From contig CAWDOY010000016.1 of the NCBI GenBank assembly GCA_963803975.1, positions 1 to 64,000 of the forward strand: a stretch of DNA of 64,000 bases. The letters are read 5' to 3'. The notes below the pieces were generated by a model. That model was not told the DNA's origin, did no database searches, and was given only the letters and a program-made list of their open reading frames with translations. This document shows, one piece after another, positions 1 through 15,011 of the stretch (position 1 is the stretch's first letter; each line of letters begins with the position of its first letter). The position numbers and the translations under genes are program-made. This stretch comes from an uncultured delta proteobacterium. Its GTDB lineage: Bacteria > Desulfobacterota > WTBG01 > CAIYCZ01.

Positions 1-1895
1 TTGCTTCAACGGCGCACACTTCTTTACAAGCGCCGCACTTGATGCATTTTTTCATGTCAAGAGAAGGCGTGCTGCCCGGCTCCCCGCTGATGGCGCTGAC
101 CGGACAGGCCCTGAAACAGGCGCCGCAGGCGGTGCAGACTGATGCGTCTATTGAATAGAGAATCAGGTCCTTGCACACCCCAGCCGGACACTGCCCCTGC
201 ATATGGGCTTCAAACTCATCCTTGAAATATTTGATTGCGTACTGCACCACACTCGGCGCGGTTTTCCCAGATCGCACAGCGATGCCTTTTCCATGGCAAA
301 CGCCAGCTCTTTTATGAGCGCCAGGTGCTCTTCAGTGCCGATGCCGATGGTAAAATTATTTATGAGCTGCAGCAGCCGTTTCACCCCTTCACGGCAGGGC
401 ACGCATTTGCCGCAGGACTCCTCCAGCAGGAACTGGGTAAAGTAGCGCGCCATATCAACCATGCAGGCGCAGTTATCTATGGCGATGAATCCGCCCGAGC
501 CCAGGTTGCCGGTGCCGGCCTTGTCCATTTCCTCATAATCAAGGTTCAAGCTGAGCATGCGCGCGGGCAGCACACCGCCGGATGGACCGCCGGTCTGAAA
601 AGCTTTCAGCTTGCGCTTTGCCGGGACCCCGCCGCCCAGCTCATTAAATATCTCCTTGAACGGCGTGCCCATGGGCACTTCGACCAGGCAGGGGGTATTC
701 ACGCTGCCGCTGATGCCGATGACCTTGGTGCCCTTGCTTGAGCCGGTGCCGATGCCGGAGAACCAGTCAGCGCCCTTGTTGATAATGACCGGCACATTGG
801 CCCAGGTCTCCACATTGTTCAGGTTGCTGGGGCTGTCCCAGAGGCCTTTCACCGCGGTGTGGATATGCTTGGCCGCGGCTCGCCGATCCGTCCCTCAAGT
901 CCCGCCATGAGCGCGGTTGACTCGCCGCACACGTACGCGCCGCCGCCCTCTTTTATCGTGACGGAGAAGTTAAAGCCTGAGCCGAGGATGTTAGTGCCGA
1001 GGAGCCCGTATGCTGCTGCCTGCTCGATTGCTTTCTGCAGGCGCTTCAGGCCGAGGGGATAACCGCTGGAAATATAGATGTAACCGTGGCCCGCGCCGAT
1101 GGCGTAGCCGCCGATGATCAGGCCTTCAAGCACGGTATGGGGGTCGCTCTCAAGGAGGCTTTTGTGCATGCCGATGCCGGGGTCGCCTTCGCTCACGTTG
1201 CACAGCACATAGCGCTCCCCGCCGGGGGCTTTCCGGCATTCAGTCCACTTTTTACCGGTGGAAAAACCGCCGCCGCCCCGGCCCCGCAGGTCTGATTTGG
1301 TCACTTCATGGATGACCTGCTCGGGGGTCATCTGCGTCACTGCTTTCATGAGCGCAGCATACCCGCCCATGGCAATGTATTCTTCAATGCTCTCGGGGTT
1401 TATGGTGCCGGCATTGCGCAGGCAGAGCTTGACCTGCTTTTTATAAAAGGGGACATCGCCGTATGCTGGTGATCTCCTTGAACTCTTCAGAGACTGCTCC
1501 CTTGGTGTAGGATACGGTTCCGCCGCTCAGAGGCAGTTCTCCTTCTCGCTCCGGATAAGAGCGCGCTTTGTATCCACGCCGCCCGCAGCCAGCGCAGTGA
1601 AGGACTCGTGCCCGGCGTCATCGGTCACCGGGCCGTAGGCTATCCTCGGCTTGCCGGGCTGAATTACTTCAATGGTCGGCTCCTGGTGGCACAGGCCGAT
1701 GCAGCCCACCGGCACGATGGTGCAGGCAAATTTCTGCGCAGCCGCTTCCCGCTCAAGGGCCTTTATAACCTTCTCCGCCCCCCTGGCAAGACAGCAGGTG
1801 GCAGTGCCAACCATGATTCTCACGGTGTCCGGGTGAAGCTGCTTGTGCCCTTCCTGTTTCAGTCTCTCAAGGTCTGCCGCAGTGCTTATTCTCAT
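1..1895 (-). CDS. NuoF/HydB-like NAD(P)H-binding flavo-iron-sulfur subunit (3' end runs off the window; split by apparent indels)
   Basis: ORF pieces 1527-1895, 849-1370, 163-852 and the frame to base 1 join into one protein. It has an N-terminal thioredoxin-like 2Fe-2S domain (GTATCC...GCIGLC), RGRGGGGF, EGDPG, GAYVCGESTAL, GGPSGG, ESCGKCVPCREG and C-terminal CTACGAC...CP / CIKCGAC...C motifs. Indels near 1530/1470, 871 and 263. Confidence 0.9.
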
Positions 1896-2415
1896 TTGTC
1901 TTCCCTGTATTTTTTTATAACGGTTGTGGCTTTATGGTGGGTCATTTCGCCAATAATTTCCTGTTTGGGCAAATCCGGCAATTTACCGGCGCTGACATCT
2001 TCGCAGATCTGCTCGTCGATGGACATGACCGGCCCGGCATTGCAGCAGCCCATGCAGCGCACTTTTTCCACGGAAAACTCTCCGTTATCGCTGACCCCTT
2101 CGCCGCTAATGCTCAGTTCCCTGCCGATGCGCTCAAAAATCTTCTCGCTCGCTCGCAGGTAGCAGGAGGTGCCGGTGCACACCTTGATGTGGTGCTTTCC
2201 CGCGGCTCTGTGCTGAACGCCTTGTAAAAGGTTGCCGCGCTGAACACCTGGCTGACAGGAATGTCGAGCTTGCTGCTCAGGTAGCGCGCGGTGTCCTCTG
2301 AAATGCTGCCCTGCGCTTTCTGGATTTCATGCATGATGGACAGCAGGGCTTCTTTTTTGCCGCCGTATTTTTCAACGGCGCTGTCGAGGGTTTTTGTTGC
2401 GGGATTGTTATCCAT
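1892..2415 (-). CDS. NuoE/HydC-like 2Fe-2S subunit (one frameshift near 2200)
   Basis: N-terminus ALLSIMHEIQ...VFSAATFY joins GKHHIKVCTGTSC...VRCMGCC after a 1-nt shift. Its stop overlaps the nuoF-like start (ATGA). Confidence 0.9.
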
Positions 2416-3148
2416 GCTGTTTGTCTCCCTGCTTGGTACTGGATGAGAGCCGCGCGTAGGCATTCGTCACCATCTTTTGCAGCTCTTCTAAATCGGCATC
2501 GGTTACGTTTTTAAACCGTCCCTGAAATTTCAGGTAGTCTTTTACTGGCCGCGGCTTTGCAACTGTTACGCTCATCAGGCAGATGCCCTGCGCTACTTCA
2601 TACAAGGGGAAGATGCAGGTATCGACGGCGATTTTCCCGATGGTTATTGCCAGGCTTGCGTCAAATTCCCAGCCAACCGGGCAGGGACAGAGGATGTGGA
2701 TGTAGGCGTTTCCCGGCGCGGCAAAGGCCCTTTTTACTTTTTCCATAAGATCAAAGGGGTAGCCCGGCGACGCGGTGGCGACATAGGAAACCCCTTCGGC
2801 TACGGCAACCGCCGGCATGTTCTTTTTCCAGAACTCTGTGCCGCAGGTTTCCGGGCCGACGCAGGCCTCATTATCAAAACAGATGGAGAGCACCTGCTTG
2901 TCAGCCTTGGGCACGCGCAGCAGCGACGGCGAAAACCGGTCAGCCGCATCCGGTCCCTTTAATTCCGGCACGGACTGTTTCCAGGGAACCTTCCAGGACC
3001 CCTTCCTGATCAGCCCTGCACCGAGAGCTTTGTATACGAGGCGCACTGCCAGCGACTCGCCGCAGCCTTTGCAGCTTATTGGCGCGTCAGGCAAAAAACA
3101 TTCTTCCCGCGGCAGCAGCCGGGGCACAAATACAGCATAGCGATCCAT
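2408..3148 (-). CDS. 2-oxoacid:ferredoxin oxidoreductase beta-subunit (PorB)-like protein lacking the TPP-binding motif
   Basis: Retains CKGCGESLAVRLV, WKVPW, CFDNEA, WKKNMPAVA, YVATASPGYPFDL, YIHILCPCPVGW, FPLYEV and YLKFQGRF. No GDG or YMNTG segment. Confidence 0.85.
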   Translation of the reverse strand: MDRYAVFVPRLLPREECFLPDAPISCKGCGESLAVRLVYKALGAGLIRKGSWKVPWKQSVPELKGPDAADRFSPSLLRVPKADKQVLSICFDNEACVGPETCGTEFWKKNMPAVAVAEGVSYVATASPGYPFDLMEKVKRAFAAPGNAYIHILCPCPVGWEFDASLAITIGKIAVDTCIFPLYEVAQGICLMSVTVAKPRPVKDYLKFQGRFKNVTDADLEELQKMVTNAYARLSSSTKQGDKQHG

Positions 3149-3420
3149 TAGCCCTCCTCCACCATGGTGATGGCACCAAACCAGCATTCACGGGCGCAGA
3201 TCCCGCAGCCCTTGCAGTAGTCGGCATCCGAAGTGAAATAGCCGTCGGTTTTCTCTTTTATTGCCGCATCAGGGCAATACAGGTAGCAAAGCCCGCACTT
3301 CGTGCATTTCAACTCATCCCATGCAGGTTTGTGCGTGCGTTTGTCGCCTTTGTTAAATGGCCGGGCCAGCTTTTTATCCAGCAGTATGCAGCCGACCTTG
3401 TTTTTATCCCACATGCTCAT
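3148..3420 (-). CDS. PorD-like 2[4Fe-4S] ferredoxin (oxidoreductase delta subunit)
   Basis: CTKCGLCYLYCPD and DYCKGCGICAREC...AITM motifs; 90 aa. Confidence 0.9.
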   Translation of the reverse strand: MSMWDKNKVGCILLDKKLARPFNKGDKRTHKPAWDELKCTKCGLCYLYCPDAAIKEKTDGYFTSDADYCKGCGICARECWFGAITMVEEG

Positions 3421-3438
3421 GGCCTTGCTTCCTTTCAG

Positions 3439-3876
3439 TTATGAGATTTTCCCGAGTATTTTACACACCGTATCAAGGGAGCCTAACAACTGCTGCTTAT
3501 CATTGTCGGTGAGGTGAGAAAATATGGACTTTGCGACTTTCCTGCGGTGGGCCAGAAACGCGGCACGGATTTTTTCACCTTTGGCGGTCAGGCGCACCAT
3601 CACCTTGCGGCGGTCGGTTTCATCACGGTCGCGCTCGGCAATGCCTTCTTTTATGAGGCTGTCAATCATCATGGTCATGTTGGAGAGCTTTACCCCGACA
3701 TTGTCCGCAAGTTCCTTCATGGAGAGACAGCTTGCCTCCTTAAAGGCAAAGAGCGCCTTGATCTGGGACACCCGCAGATCCGACTTGATATTGCCGGAAC
3801 CGTTGGCAATCTTCTGGGTGTAGATGCGCCCGAAATTGCGCAGGGTGCGCATGTATTGATTCAGTTCTTCTTCCAT
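3439..3876 (-). CDS. MarR family transcriptional regulator
   Basis: SMKELAD...MIDSLIKEG...DRRKVMVRLTAKG winged-HTH signature. Confidence 0.93.
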   Translation of the reverse strand: MEEELNQYMRTLRNFGRIYTQKIANGSGNIKSDLRVSQIKALFAFKEASCLSMKELADNVGVKLSNMTMMIDSLIKEGIAERDRDETDRRKVMVRLTAKGEKIRAAFLAHRRKVAKSIFSHLTDNDKQQLLGSLDTVCKILGKIS

Positions 3877-3892
3877 AGACCCTATCCCCCTT

Positions 3893-3922
3893 TTGAAATA
3901 GTTCTAATTTGTAACTATTCAA
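3893..3922. promoter_or_regulatory. Putative MarR operator (AATAGTT-N9-AACTATT)
   Basis: Inverted repeat at 3897-3903 and 3913-3919 just upstream of the marR start. A minus-strand TTGACA lies at 3950-3955. Confidence 0.55.
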
Positions 3923-4030
3923 CTTTAAAATGTACTAAGAGAAATATTTTGTCAAGAAGTTTTTGCGGCTGGTTTAAAAATTTTATCCGCGGCTGTAGCG
4001 CCCGGACCAGCAGGGTACTATGGGGTTGAC

Positions 4031-4137
4031 CGGTTTCATGCCTCGCAAGCCCCGCTTTGTAAGCGGGGTCAAGAGGCATGTATCTGTAAAGAATAATTAA
4101 ACTCCGGGAAGCCCCGCCTTGTAGCGGGGAGCTTCAC
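4031..4137 (+). mobile_element. Non-autonomous IS200/IS605-family miniature element (PATE-like)
   Basis: Two related hairpins, AAGCCCCGCTTTGTAAGCGGGG and AAGCCCCGCCTTGTAGCGGGG. It ends in TTCAC, is preceded by TTGAC, and contains no transposase. Confidence 0.65.
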
Positions 4138-4254
4138 TTGCCTGGCGTGTTTGGGCTATGTTTTATAAGCGTACGCGGATTGTCGCAGATCTTTGCAGAT
4201 ATTTATTAATATCCTGCTCATCCGCTTAATCAGCGTCCCCATAAACAGGAGGAA

Positions 4255-4491
4255 ATGGTCTTGAAGTGTTATATATGTGCAAAGGAAGGGGCTGATACAC
4301 CGGCTGTCGCCATCTGCATTGTCTGCGGCATGGGGGTGTGCATGGTGCATTCAAAGCGAGAAGAGCTGCCAATCGAGGATATTGTGGACTGGGGCCTGGG
4401 CAGGGAAAAATTGAGTTATCCAAAAACGCTTCCCCCTATTCTCTGCGCCTGGTGTTATGAAGCCCTGGCCCAGCGAAAGAAAAAGCCGTAA
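4255..4491 (+). CDS. Small Cys/His-rich putative zinc-binding protein (DUF2180-like)
   Basis: KCYIC...AVAICIVCGMGVCMVH...LCAWC, with AGGAGG RBS. Confidence 0.75.
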   Translation: MVLKCYICAKEGADTPAVAICIVCGMGVCMVHSKREELPIEDIVDWGLGREKLSYPKTLPPILCAWCYEALAQRKKKP

Positions 4492-4897: not shown

Positions 4898-6064
4898 TCA
4901 AGAAATCAGGTTTTTTATTTTACCCCCGAGAAGCCACGGCACTTTTTGCGCTATCGCCGCGAGCACTTTCCCTGAAGCGCTGCGGGTGGCAATGGGTTTA
5001 CTGTCCGCTGTAAAAGCGGGAATCGCAGTATCCCAGCCTGATGGCAAATCGCCCCGCAGTGCCGCAAGAAATTGTTCGGCAAGTTCAGGAGAGGCTTTTT
5101 TATACGAATCAAAAAGGCTGTTCCAGTCAGCTTCACGCTGTGCTCCCCGCTCTCCGGCCTCTCGCATATGCCGGAGCACGTTTTCCGTCACCAGAAACTG
5201 CGCGTCTTCAGGCCAGCCGAGGATTTCTTGGTGAGCCGCACTTCTTCTTCACCGAGAGGAGCGCCATGGGCTTCTTTAGTGTCCTGGAAGTGCGGGGACC
5301 CGTAGCCGATATGCGATCTGACCATAATGAGCGATGGCCGGTCTGTTTCCTGCCGTGCGGCAGCAAAAGCTGCTGACAGGGTCGCAAGGTCGTTTGCCGC
5401 GTCCCTATGTTCTGCAGCTGCCAGTGATGCTCTCAAAGCGCTTGCAGACATCATCTGAATAGGTGAGAGCCGTCTCCCCTTCAATGGTGATCCGGTTATC
5501 ATCATAGACGAAAATCAGTTTGCCCAGGCCGAAATGGGCGGCAAGAGATGCAGCCTCATGGGAGGCACCTTCCATCAGGTCTCCATCACTGCAGAAGCCA
5601 TAGGTGTAGTGATCAACGAGGGGATATCCTTCCCGGTTGAAGAGTGCCGCAAGGCGCGCCTCAGCCATCGCCATGCCCACCGCATTCATAAAGCCCTGGC
5701 CCAGCGGGCCGGTGGTTGTTTCAATGCCCGGGGTGAGACCGTGCTCGGGATGACCGGGCGCCCTGCTTCCCCACTGGCGAAAATTTTTGATATCGTCAAG
5801 GGTCAGGTCATAGCCGGTTAAAAAGAGCATGGCATAGTGCAGCATCGAGGCATGACCGCATGACAGCACAAAGCGGTCACGGTTAAACCACGAGGGGTTG
5901 CGCGGGTTGAAACAAAGAAATTGTGTCCACAGAACATAGGCAAGCGGGGCGAGCGCCATGGGTGTGCCGGGATGACCGGAGTTTGCCTTCTGCACGGCAT
6001 CCATGGAAAGAGTACGGATAGTGTTTATACAGAGCTGGTCTAACTGATCGGGCTGTTTATTCAT
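4898..6064 (-). pseudogene. tkt: Transketolase, 3'-truncated (N-terminal TPP domain only) and frameshifted
   Basis: [48 protein letters not shown] and ATRSASG are present. Similarity stops at WLLGG, just before the expected SADL. Confidence 0.85.
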
Positions 6065-6287
6065 GGTTTTACTCCTTAGAGGTTCTTTGGCAGTGGTATG
6101 CAGCAAATCTATCGCAAATCAGGCCTGCAGACAACCACTAAAACTGGCGGAAGGGTAAAATGTACCAGCCTGTAATCTTTCCTTGAATTGCCATGAGCGG
6201 GTATGCTACATGTATACACAAGAGTAATGATTTTGACTTACATGTAGAGGGTGGCCATATTTCTTAACAGAAGGGAGGGGATACCAT

Positions 6288-12476: not shown

Positions 12477-15011
12477 TCAGCCATCCTGGAAAACAAACTT
12501 GATTCCCAGTTTTTCAAACATTTTATGTTGGCTGAGATCCTGTTTCAGCCTGAGAATGGTCACTTTCAGTTCGAAACTTGCCGCTGTGTTGATTGCATCC
12601 AATAAAGATTCAATTCTATGCATCATGGCGGGTGTAATATGCATTTCTTTAGTTTCAATCGATGATTTAATGTGAGGGAATATGCTGCTGAGAACTTCTC
12701 TGGCTTGAGATGTTATGTCAGGGTTCTTAAGCAGAATCGAGGTCAGTTCCAGCGAGTGCCTATAAAATAGCCGCACATATCCTCTTCCCGCATGGCTCTT
12801 GAGTAAAATCGTATCCCTGAAATCCCTCAGCTCATCAATCCTTTCTGGTTGATCATCTGAAAGCAAAACTATTGGGCATTGTTTTGCAGTCGTTGTCGTT
12901 GATGAAGATGCTGCCGTTGTAGTAACTTTTACACTGGTTGTTGTGGAACTGCTCACCAGCATGGTCGAGGTAGTTACCGGTGGTGGTGTTGAAGATGTAG
13001 AGGGCTGGGATAGTGAGCTGGTTGTGGTTTTTTTAGACCCACCTCCTCCATGTCCTCCGCTTGAAGGTATGGTGGTGGTTGCCGGCAGGATACTGGTTGT
13101 GTTTATTAAACTTGAAGTGGTACTTGCCTGGCTTGATGTTGTGCTGAACTCGCTGGTCGTTGTTGTGCCGGGCTGACTCGTAGTGGTCGGTTGAATTGAG
13201 GTAGTAGCTGCCGCGCTTGTTGTAGTAGTAGTAAGTTGAATGCTCGTTGTAATCGGCTGAGCAGTTGTAGTGCTAGTGCTCAGCTGGATAGTTGTGGTAC
13301 TCGGCTGACTGGTTGTGGTGCTTGATGAAGATGTTGAAGTGCCTGGTTGGCTCGTGGTGGTAGCGGGCAGAGTGGTCGTTACTGGCGTCCCGTCAGTCGA
13401 CAGCGTGGCGGTCATAATCGATCCGGAACTGCTTATATCGGTAATGCTGACATTGCTTGCGCCTTCATTCCACAAGTTACTGTTAGGTGAAGAATTATTG
13501 GTGAAGGAGGTGTTATTGGTGCTGCCCGGATACGGATCCCCCTGGTTACCTCTGTTTTTTTTCTTCTCTAAATCCCAGAGGTTATCAGCCTGCATAAGGG
13601 ATAGATGGTAATGATTTACCGCACAATCCGGCCCGCCTGGATAGCATTCATTCCTGTTTGAAGAAACACTCTCATCGATATGCCATACGAGGAGCCCGGC
13701 GCCGGGTAAGCCGGTATCAAAGCCGCTCTTCTGCCTGTTTTCTACTAAAAAGTACTCTCCGCCACTTGATGGACTGCCAGGTAACAGTTGATACACATCA
13801 GCATTGGTAGCGGCCGCGCTTATCGGTTCATTGGTTAAGGTGCCCGATACGATTGCGGGCGTAATCCAGCCAAGTGCATATTTGCACCAGGCATCCATAT
13901 GTGCTGGACGATCTCCCGGCCTTGAGACAGAGTTCCAGGCTCCTCCTGCCATGATACTCCAGTTGCCAATACCTTCAGATGAATAATCCGTATCATAGAA
14001 ATCGGGTAGTCCAAGGGCATGCCCGTACTCGTGCGCAAACACACCAATAGTTTGCATACCTCCCGAGAGTGATTCAGGCTGGATGATATATTTATTTACC
14101 TTTATATAGCCTCCCTGGGGATGTGGGTCGTTTGTCGTATATTCTCCCCCATCACTATATCCGTAGTAATAGGCACCATTGAGGCTCCAGCTATGCGACC
14201 AGATATCTGTTGATGTGCCTCCTGCTTCCGCGCCTGATCCCTGGTGAACAATTGCCACCACATCAACATAGCCGTCTCCATCCTGATCATAGGGGGCAAA
14301 ATTGAATCCTGCCGCATCGGCAGCCATGACCGCCTCTCGCACCAGGGTGCCCGGCCATCGGTCATGCACCGCTGGCGTCATTTTGCCCGTAGTAGTCATG
14401 ATTATTTGCTGCTGTGTACCATCCCGCTACTCCGCCCGGGCCTGCAGTGACGGTGAACGACCCGTACGACACCTCAGTGAAGTATTCTTGCAGGCTGTAA
14501 TTGCCGCTGCCGAACAGCAGCGTATTGAAATCTGTCCCGGTAAAAGTGGCTGACCGGTCTTTGAAGTTTATGAGGATGACAGGGATATTCGCTGTCCCTG
14601 ATAATGGAATCTGCTCTTGAGCAAGTTCGGGTGATAGCTCAGCCGGAAATGCATTTTGCGCAATCAAGGACCGCAGCTCTTTTTCTGGCAGGAGATGTTT
14701 GGAAATGTTAGGCGGAAGCTGGTCAATGCCTACTCTATTGAACGAACTTACCAGTCTGCCGCTCCAATCAAGTTCAGCATATGTCCAGGTCTTTACATGC
14801 TCATCGAAGACAATGGAATAACCCTCTGCTGTCTCCCATCCGTGTGAGACCACTCATCACCCCACTGCCGTGCACGAAAGGCTGTGCCATCCGGCTGGGT
14901 TAAGGTGCGAAAAGCAGGTGCTGCAGGCACGGCATGCAACTCATGAGAGAAAGTCAACATGATGATAGTGAGCAGCACAATATAAATTAGATAACTTGTT
15001 CTGTTGAACAT
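12477..15011 (-). CDS. Secreted M6-family (immune inhibitor A-like) metalloprotease with Thr/Ser-rich linker and CFI-box-like C-terminal domain (indels near 14846 and 14367)
   Basis: Signal peptide, QPDG...GDE propeptide, YFTEVSYG, IWSH, HEYGHALGLPDFYD (about 14019-14033), YFLVENRQ, GLLVWHIDE, a T/S run, and CP...LRDFRD...GRGYVRLFY. Confidence 0.9.

Follow-up and report, generated by a model that had tools for sequence, protein, structure and literature searches.

A short PorB homolog lacking the thiamine-binding motifs in Bfu operons of an uncultured delta proteobacterium: a possible iron-sulfur arm of a BfuABC complex

Results

The window analysed in this study comprises the first 64,000 nucleotides of contig CAWDOY010000016.1 (contig C16) from assembly GCA_963803975.1 of an uncultured delta proteobacterium. 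The operon under study is cut because the window coincides with the start of the contig. The following features were recognised:

1..1895, minus strand: bfuB (NuoF/HydB-like; FMN domain, B1, B2 site and B3/B4 domain), running past the contig end
near 1510, 1467, 870 and 265, minus strand: frameshifts by which the assembly breaks bfuB
1892..2415, minus strand: bfuC (NuoE/HydC-like, 2Fe-2S), interrupted near 2198 by a single-base error of the assembly
3148..2408, minus strand: porB* (246 aa), thiamine-free homolog of PorB (OFOR domain VI), type A, clade I
2681..2689, minus strand: C154-P-C156; C156 invariant (97/97), C154 new in type A (74/97)
2828..2863, minus strand: remnant of deletion 3, 12 residues, net 21 shorter; YMNTG loop gone; contains the non-conserved C96 and C102
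2882..2980, minus strand: remnant of deletion 2, 33 residues replacing 65; FEN segment, GDG and the next helix gone
2996..3019, minus strand: remnant of deletion 1, 8 residues replacing 23; ATGC cysteine gone
3062..3073, minus strand: C26-x-x-C29, proximal-cluster motif kept in 97/97 short homologs
3113..3148, minus strand: N-terminal extension (residues 1-12), common to Por-Bfu-type beta subunits, low-confidence in the monomer model, candidate docking segment
3148..3420, minus strand: porD* (90 aa), two 4Fe-4S motifs; its stop overlaps the porB* start
3388-3390, minus strand: Cys11 of PorD*, fixed in 44/44 short loci
3439..3876, minus strand: marR-family regulator, first gene of the clade I operon
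3897..3919, no strand: palindrome with 7-bp arms and a 9-bp spacer, candidate MarR operator

The porB* frame is open throughout and carries CKGC, WKVPW, CFDNEA, WKKNMPA, YPFDL, LCPCPVGW and QGRF, all seven motifs named in an earlier sequence-only reading of this DNA. That reading had described the ATGC, GDG and YMNTG segments as missing or shortened, which a comparison with the genome's intact PorB (G000, contig C18) bore out. The stretch from KALG to W has 8 residues instead of 23 (net 15 lost), that from VPW to CFDNE 33 instead of 65 (net 32 lost) and the D92-T125 span 33 instead of 54 (net 21 lost), a total shortening of 68 residues. As had been claimed for the other frames, a GDG motif was found in none of the six frames of the porB* region. 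N93, the Asn of the DNE motif and second Mg ligand, is present. Three of the four canonical proximal-cluster cysteines remain; the lost one is that of TGC, one of the canonical ligands of the proximal 4Fe-4S cluster. In the profile searches that the reading had proposed, no Pfam family matched PorB*, TPP_enzyme_C included, and the best NCBIfam match, PorB (PRK11865), covered only residues 98-236 at 155 bits against a cut-off of 405, so that the curated PorB family score was not reached.

Single-base sequencing errors had been held unable to produce these deletions, and the short reads agreed. Contigs of 4 of the 24 listed runs, taken as DNA, were compared with the window; one (X2 record 22, 2723-3056) bridged all three deletion junctions with 1 difference and no gap, and gap-free pieces from two further runs covered parts of porB*. 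The missing segments were thus not restored by short-read data, and the alignment with the same-genus ortholog L001 contained no indel in porB*. The single-base frameshifts in bfuC and bfuB (265, 870, 1467/1510, 2198), in contrast, were missing from both the short-read contigs and L001. Since the short-read contigs carry the deletions and lack the frameshifts, the latter are assembly errors and the porB* deletions are real. Contig pieces of four RNA-listed runs fell on porD*, bfuC and bfuB, but contigs cannot show transcription. Elsewhere in the window, a transketolase gene lies in pieces (4898-6106); this break is likely another assembly error, because the gene is intact (685 aa) in the relative L117. 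At 12477-14399 on the minus strand lies an ORF resembling a secreted metalloprotease (HEYGH), with an extended low-complexity region rich in Thr and Ser; frameshifts apparently split it.

The homolog set contained the query and the best 120 of 2130 matches, of which 97 proteins had 215-260 aa (short homologs) and 21 had more than 290 aa (full-length); 3 fragments were left out. The same deletions recurred in the 97 short homologs. YxNTG was found in 0/97 of them and in 21/21 full-length proteins, and GDG was absent at the motif position in 97/97, the four GDG strings present all lying elsewhere. C26, C29 and C156 were present in all 97 and also in the 13 type B/C copies (described below) with a visible N-terminus, while the ATGC cysteine is gone. 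D92, E94 and K109 were invariant and H151 nearly so; C90 was kept in 96/97, N93 in 93/97, and C127 and C154 each in 74/97, with Ser or Thr at position 154 in many copies. Some copies have lost N93 and C154.

The earlier reading had suggested that the cysteines of EAC, ETC and CPC replace the lost ligand. EAC and ETC are ruled out, given that C96 occurs in 8/97 and C102 in fewer than 5/97 short homologs. CPC still stands as a candidate, but it is not universal (74/97; absent in types B and C). As judged from conservation, C154 (74/97) or the PorD cysteine (44/44) would be better candidates than EAC or ETC. Mutual compensation between C127 and C154 was also considered: the two are never both Ser in the 97 proteins, but L044 has Asn/Ser, and related proteins are not independent, so this was not retained.

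Against L001, porB* has a dN/dS of 0.25 and porD* one of 0.095; for the opening part of bfuB the value is 0.28. PorB* is carried by 33 of the 42 genomes of the class (all genomes of four families, 0/8 in f3 and 0/1 in f102), with one to three copies per genome and 67 intact copies in total. The deletions are therefore common to a conserved family under purifying selection, and not the mark of the lone decayed allele that would have counted against the earlier reading. In a sample of 301 genomes of the phylum, full-length matches were confined to the window's order. The window's own genome contains three type A copies, one frameshifted longer copy (contig C25) and one intact Por operon. In an atlas search, PorB* was grouped with two unnamed clusters and then with TPP_enzyme_C clusters. 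No description of a thiamine-free PorB was found in the literature searched, with subscription literature mostly outside its reach.

The AlphaFold model built from the 97-row alignment (pLDDT 79) kept the PorB fold (Z 19), as structure prediction had been proposed to check; the single-sequence fold (pLDDT 38) was discarded. The model matched the beta subunit of the four-subunit PFOR of M. acetivorans (9bt4_C; Z 19.1, rmsd 3.0, 193 residues), which indicates that the domain VI fold is kept, and that of oxalate oxidoreductase (5c4i_C; Z 18.8), with 193-196 residues aligned across both references. PorB* shares with these proteins the fold, CxxC, DNE and CP..W, whereas it lacks GDG, YxNTG and TGC and has no alpha or gamma gene beside it. 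The remnant of deletion 2 was modelled as a new beta-hairpin (strands 75-80 and 86-92), and the N-terminal extension was poorly predicted in the monomer.

The gene neighbourhood was compared in 80 GTDB loci plus the own-genome copies (44 short, 40 full-length) with reference-based gene labels, all-against-all ORF clustering being too noisy. In the window's clade the order is marR-porD-porB*-bfuC-bfuB-bfuA-ferredoxin-GGR-type flavoprotein, the last three genes lying beyond the window; all five clade I loci of sufficient length run bfuC-bfuB (634 aa)-bfuA (251 aa)-ferredoxin-GGR-type flavoprotein. Among the short loci, porD adjoins porB* in 44/44 and porA and porG occur in 0/44; bfuC is next to porB* in 42/42 loci with room for it, and bfuB is present in 26/26. 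The full-length loci have porA in 40/40 and bfuC next in 28/34, which is the arrangement of the Por-Bfu predicted by Schut et al. (PMC9304861). A GGR-type gene lies within 5.5 kb in 11/26 short loci versus 0/17 full-length loci; it is thus missing within that distance in 15/26 short loci, and bfuA is missing in 9/26. Fifteen more short loci among 80 metagenome loci showed the same gene order where visible. One operon, L217, runs bfuC-bfuB-bfuA-ferredoxin-GGR with neither porD nor porB* beside it, and the pair is therefore not always encoded in cis. Orphan bfuA genes occur in the window's genome at G000:C12:1856-2794, C45:4738-5679 and C30:35575-36336, one immediately before a GGR-type gene, and may complete clade III operons without bfuA. 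In the intact Por operon (G000:C18:21669-23983), bfuC and the start of bfuB lie in one frame with no adjacent bfuA, by frameshift or fusion.

Both 4Fe-4S motifs of PorD* are kept in all aligned copies, and by eye the conserved GxWR tryptophan is lost. The N-terminal cysteine of PorD was found in 44/44 short loci versus 10/35 full-length loci, and none was seen in type B PorD. When the frameshifts were read through with the intact ortholog L001, BfuC with 2Fe-2S and BfuB with an FMN domain and B1 were present. The B2 ligands (Cys, Thr, His, Cys, Cys) and the two 4Fe-4S motifs of B3/B4 are present in both L001 and the window, but missing in 31 of the 32 short-locus BfuB shown (one cut by a contig end), and are kept only in the window's clade. 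Moreover, the flavin/NAD-pocket motif reads SEG[DE]PxI[GA][ML]H[RK] in 32/32 short-locus BfuB (SEGDPGIGMHK in the window, instead of DEGDPGAFMDR) and DEGDPGA[FY]MDR in 18/19 full-locus BfuB. NAD use and bifurcation are uncertain, since most short-locus BfuB lack B2 and B3/B4 and all 32 have the altered pocket motif; deletion of the B2 ligands and B3/B4 in T. kivui HydABC has been reported to abolish bifurcation (PMC11829005). Clades II and IV have a 2x4Fe-4S domain fused to BfuA and have dropped B3/B4; this domain may come from B3/B4 or from the free ferredoxin. Some clade II-IV BfuC (L019:1468-2169, L017:7202-8104, L034:11776-13767) have one or two N-terminal helical repeats with a weak DUF2621 match, and this repeat heads BfuB too in some loci.

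The 33 genomes of the class with PorB* are the same 33 that carry 2-20 GGR-type paralogs, a co-occurrence that reflects essentially one clade. The GGR family TIGR02032 was the best match for 7/7 proteins or fragments, with 29-75 bits against a cut-off of 159, so the downstream flavoprotein resembles GGR at superfamily level only. The window's genome encodes about 20 such FAD proteins (e.g. C25:27695-30410, C39:23073-25811 and C47:171085-173897; further cases in L218 and L219), often in tandem arrays or beside small ferredoxins. ComA was found in 28/33 genomes with PorB* and in 0/9 without it; at G000:C37:14948-17174, comA has neighbours resembling further coenzyme M biosynthesis genes. The traits of the host genomes appear to fit those given for Ca. 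Anaeropigmentia (bioRxiv 10.1101/2021.03.22.436540).

The perfect palindrome has three sites in 4.25 Mb, before the window's operon, before the contig C25 operon and before an operon on contig C50 with marR and a nitrogenase-like reductase (G000:C50:21350-26772), where the genes behind it are marR, two nitrogenase-iron-protein-like genes and an N/B-like pair. Among 140 controls with permuted arms, 136 had no site and 3 had one. The window's palindrome is perfect in 4 of 6 relatives inspected, and the C50-type palindrome recurs with one mismatch in G301 and G035. Only perfect palindromes were used, since one-mismatch sites were no commoner than the control in 5 relatives. Sites with 6-bp arms numbered three with an 8-bp spacer and two with a 3-bp spacer, and no sigma-70 consensus promoter was found in window positions 3400-4300. 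The sharing with the nitrogenase-like reductase operon hints at tetrapyrrole reduction. Paralogous self-regulation would be an alternative to one regulon, because two of these sites each lie in front of a marR of their own. The window's MarR itself (3439-3876) has BilQ, a bilirubin-utilisation regulator, as best NCBIfam match, a weak hint at 47 bits against a cut-off of 125.

Two more types of thiamine-free PorB (B and C) were seen in porD-porB-bfuCBA-ferredoxin-GGR operons (G000:C25:34117-35015, minus strand, and L211-L224). Among 14 regions chosen from the best matches to the C25 region and to P0161, a thiamine-free PorB-like gene, bfuC and a GGR-type gene were found in 14/14 and porA or porG in none; porD was visible in 12. 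These proteins have 275-320 aa where complete, with the motifs replaced and not deleted, and 12 of their BfuB keep the canonical flavin-pocket motif. Two quick trees were built. In the one with 82 rows, a branch with an SH-aLRT of 90 sets types A, B and C apart together, and their neighbours are beta subunits of the Por-Bfu type. A single loss of the thiamine motifs is possible on this topology, in which long branches may attract. The N-terminal motif was found in 68/69 full-length PorB with adjacent Bfu, 9/14 without it, 1/33 distant PorB and, by a strict pattern, 48/54 short PorB*. This extension marks the Por-Bfu clade. Other degenerate PorB-like proteins without GDG (P0200, P0225, P0246 and P0163, one from Ca. 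Aenigmatarchaeota) lie apart from types A-C in the tree, which suggests an independent loss of the thiamine motifs.

Discussion

In this study, uncultured sediment bacteria were found to carry a PorB homolog that has kept its fold and three cluster cysteines and lost the segments on which thiamine chemistry depends. The Mg-diphosphate is bound by GDG together with the Asn that comes after it, the proximal cluster has CXGC among its ligands, and thiamine lies at the boundary of alpha and beta (PMC5020499); domains I, II, III and VI are described as essential in PFORs (PMC13768988). For these reasons PorB* is incapable of 2-oxoacid chemistry, and the automatic annotation of porB* genes as pyruvate oxidoreductase beta subunits is wrong. 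The sequence-only reading had called the protein a pseudoenzyme; this stands in so far as no thiamine enzyme of the OFOR kind is possible, and falls where it counted on EAC and ETC as replacement ligands.

The most likely ancestor of porB* is the predicted Por-Bfu bifurcating enzyme (Por-BfuABCDEFG, Type 2 Bfu; Schut et al. 2022, PMC9304861). In both systems, bfuC-bfuB-bfuA directly follow porD and a porB homolog, and BfuA is short and of Type 2. It is in Por-Bfu operons that the closest full-length PorB homologs are found, and these share the N-terminal extension. The window's system differs in lacking porA, porG, the thiamine motifs and one cluster cysteine, in its altered BfuB flavin-pocket motif and in the added ferredoxin and GGR-type gene, and most of its paralogs lack B2 and B3/B4. 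Por-Bfu is defined by four POR subunits and a thiamine site, whereas only a delta and a thiamine-free beta subunit are found here; PorB* is therefore a member neither of the functional PorB family nor of Por-Bfu as defined. The closest solved relatives of BfuB are WorABCSL (9mqx; PMC12318220) and NiFe-BfuABCSL (7t2r), in which accessory Fe-S subunits wire a partner into BfuA, much as in the arm proposed below. Their accessory module has a known catalytic site (tungsten or NiFe), whereas that of the PorB* module is gone. In M. acetivorans, too, the gene for a GGR-superfamily FAD protein is directly preceded by that for a small ferredoxin; this GGR needs its cognate ferredoxin, and the preceding gene encodes the donor (PMC4244643; for context see PMC10821996). 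The flavoproteins here differ in their scores (63-75 versus 159 bits, the GG-red-SF cut-off) and in occurring in 2-20 copies per genome.

The explanation that we favour, with slightly more confidence than doubt, is that PorB* is a thiamine-free Fe-S arm on a BfuABC complex serving GGR-superfamily flavoenzymes. A Por-Bfu operon would have lost alpha and gamma, leaving a PorB*-PorD* pair. An Fe-S cluster would remain bound to C26, C29 and C156; it would be a [3Fe-4S] cluster, or a [4Fe-4S] cluster whose fourth ligand is C154, Cys11 of PorD* or a non-Cys group. The N-terminal extension of Por-Bfu type, to which we assign this role by inference, would keep the arm attached to BfuA(BC), and the face once covered by alpha and thiamine would have become a port for a new redox partner. 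By analogy with WorABCSL, in which cluster A4 of BfuA is fed by a chain of accessory Fe-S clusters (PMC12318220; nomenclature as in PMC12337175), PorD* and PorB* likely form a cluster chain on BfuA with the far end free for the partner. The HydABC-type FMN/Fe-S complex BfuABC is predicted to exchange electrons with NAD(H), the co-encoded ferredoxin and the GGR-superfamily flavoenzymes. In the window's clade, where B2 and B3/B4 are kept, the complex would divide electrons arriving through the arm between NAD+ and the cognate ferredoxin, which in its reduced form would power the flavoenzyme; no bifurcation would take place in copies that lack B2 and B3/B4. As substrate, a tetrapyrrole or a compound of isoprenoid type is the most likely, and this is the weakest step of the explanation.

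Several observations speak against an Fe-S arm. Three fixed cysteines would fit Zn as well, and no single replacement ligand is universal, as C154 is Ser or Thr in many copies and type B PorD shows no N-terminal cysteine. The armless L217 operon seems to count against it, as do the short loci without bfuA (9/26) or without a GGR-type gene within 5.5 kb (15/26) and the presence of the N-terminal motif in 9/14 full-length PorB without adjacent Bfu; Por-Bfu itself is a prediction only (PMC9304861). A modest probability goes to the view that PorB* has Zn or lacks a redox cluster, and that it and PorD* only stabilise or assemble the Bfu complex, while electrons pass from NAD(P)H through FMN and BfuA to ferredoxin and the flavoenzyme and bypass PorB*. 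With a universal cysteine number of only three, this view agrees with the replacement of clusters by Zn at Bfu sites B2 and B5 (PMC11829005), with the L217 operon and with clades II and IV, in which the 2x4Fe-4S domain on BfuA and the absence of B3/B4 would provide a direct path. It does not explain why PorD* retains both 4Fe-4S motifs in all aligned copies, or why new cysteines are fixed in PorD* (44/44) and common in PorB* (74/97) where a ligand was lost.

It is less probable still that PorB* is a new enzyme that provides the third-substrate site of a new Bfu type: its three-Cys cluster would leave one iron site open in the former thiamine pocket and bind a substrate there, either a pigment or a thiol or disulfide, for instance coenzyme M. 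The invariant D92, E94 and K109, the nearly invariant H151, the extra cysteines close to the site (C90, 96/97; C127, 74/97; C154, 74/97) and the distribution of ComA (28/33 versus 0/9) speak for this view. In ferredoxin:thioredoxin reductase, CPC ligation occurs beside a redox-active thiol, which is counted on the same side. However, D92, E94, K109, C90 and C127 are equally conserved in full-length relatives, so that no new function is called for; paralogs differ widely in the rebuilt segments, unlike a substrate pocket, and N93 and C154 are lost in some copies. Pairing in trans of PorB*-PorD* with PorA/PorG of the intact Por-Bfu or of another OFOR, so that an inactive half would couple or regulate an active enzyme, is very unlikely. 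The genome does offer one intact porG-D-A-B-bfuC-bfuB operon (contig C18) and four other PorA-like genes, but thiamine sits at the alpha/beta interface (PMC5020499) and the segments that bind it are lost, the GxWR tryptophan is gone from PorD*, and only one close porA stands against three to four short or degenerate copies. The possibility of gene decay or of an error in assembly was considered because the assembly is rich in frameshifts, including four or five in the adjacent bfuC and bfuB; its probability is virtually nil, as it is refuted by the short-read contigs that carry the deletions and not those frameshifts, by the dN/dS of 0.25 and by the 67 intact copies in 33 genomes.

Conclusions

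All described PFORs, in the account of PMC13768988, depend on thiamine and on domains I, II, III and VI, whereas here domain VI alone persists. Its survival without the thiamine motifs, under selection and in several paralogous versions, makes PorB* a clean case of an enzyme reduced to a redox or docking part. The finding adds a Bfu type that the available part of the 2022 classification (PMC9304861) does not hold, and within one genome Bfu cores are found that have been remodelled to different degrees. As a small unit, the PorB*-PorD* pair would also offer an easy test of the docking model predicted for Por-Bfu. Moreover, the finding points to 2-20 flavoenzymes per genome from a family without a known substrate. 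In a bolder version of the Fe-S arm, which we put forward tentatively and think unlikely in its full form, a new Bfu type would use a thiamine enzyme scaffold, stripped to a three-Cys cluster, as the port for the third substrate of a bifurcating complex; Cys11 of PorD would complete this cluster in trans, or the cluster would stay open to a substrate. This complex would belong to one MarR regulon with a nitrogenase-like reductase and a large flavoenzyme family, and may supply low-potential ferredoxin for an undescribed anaerobic pathway for the reduction and breakdown of chlorophyll-type tetrapyrroles in sediments.
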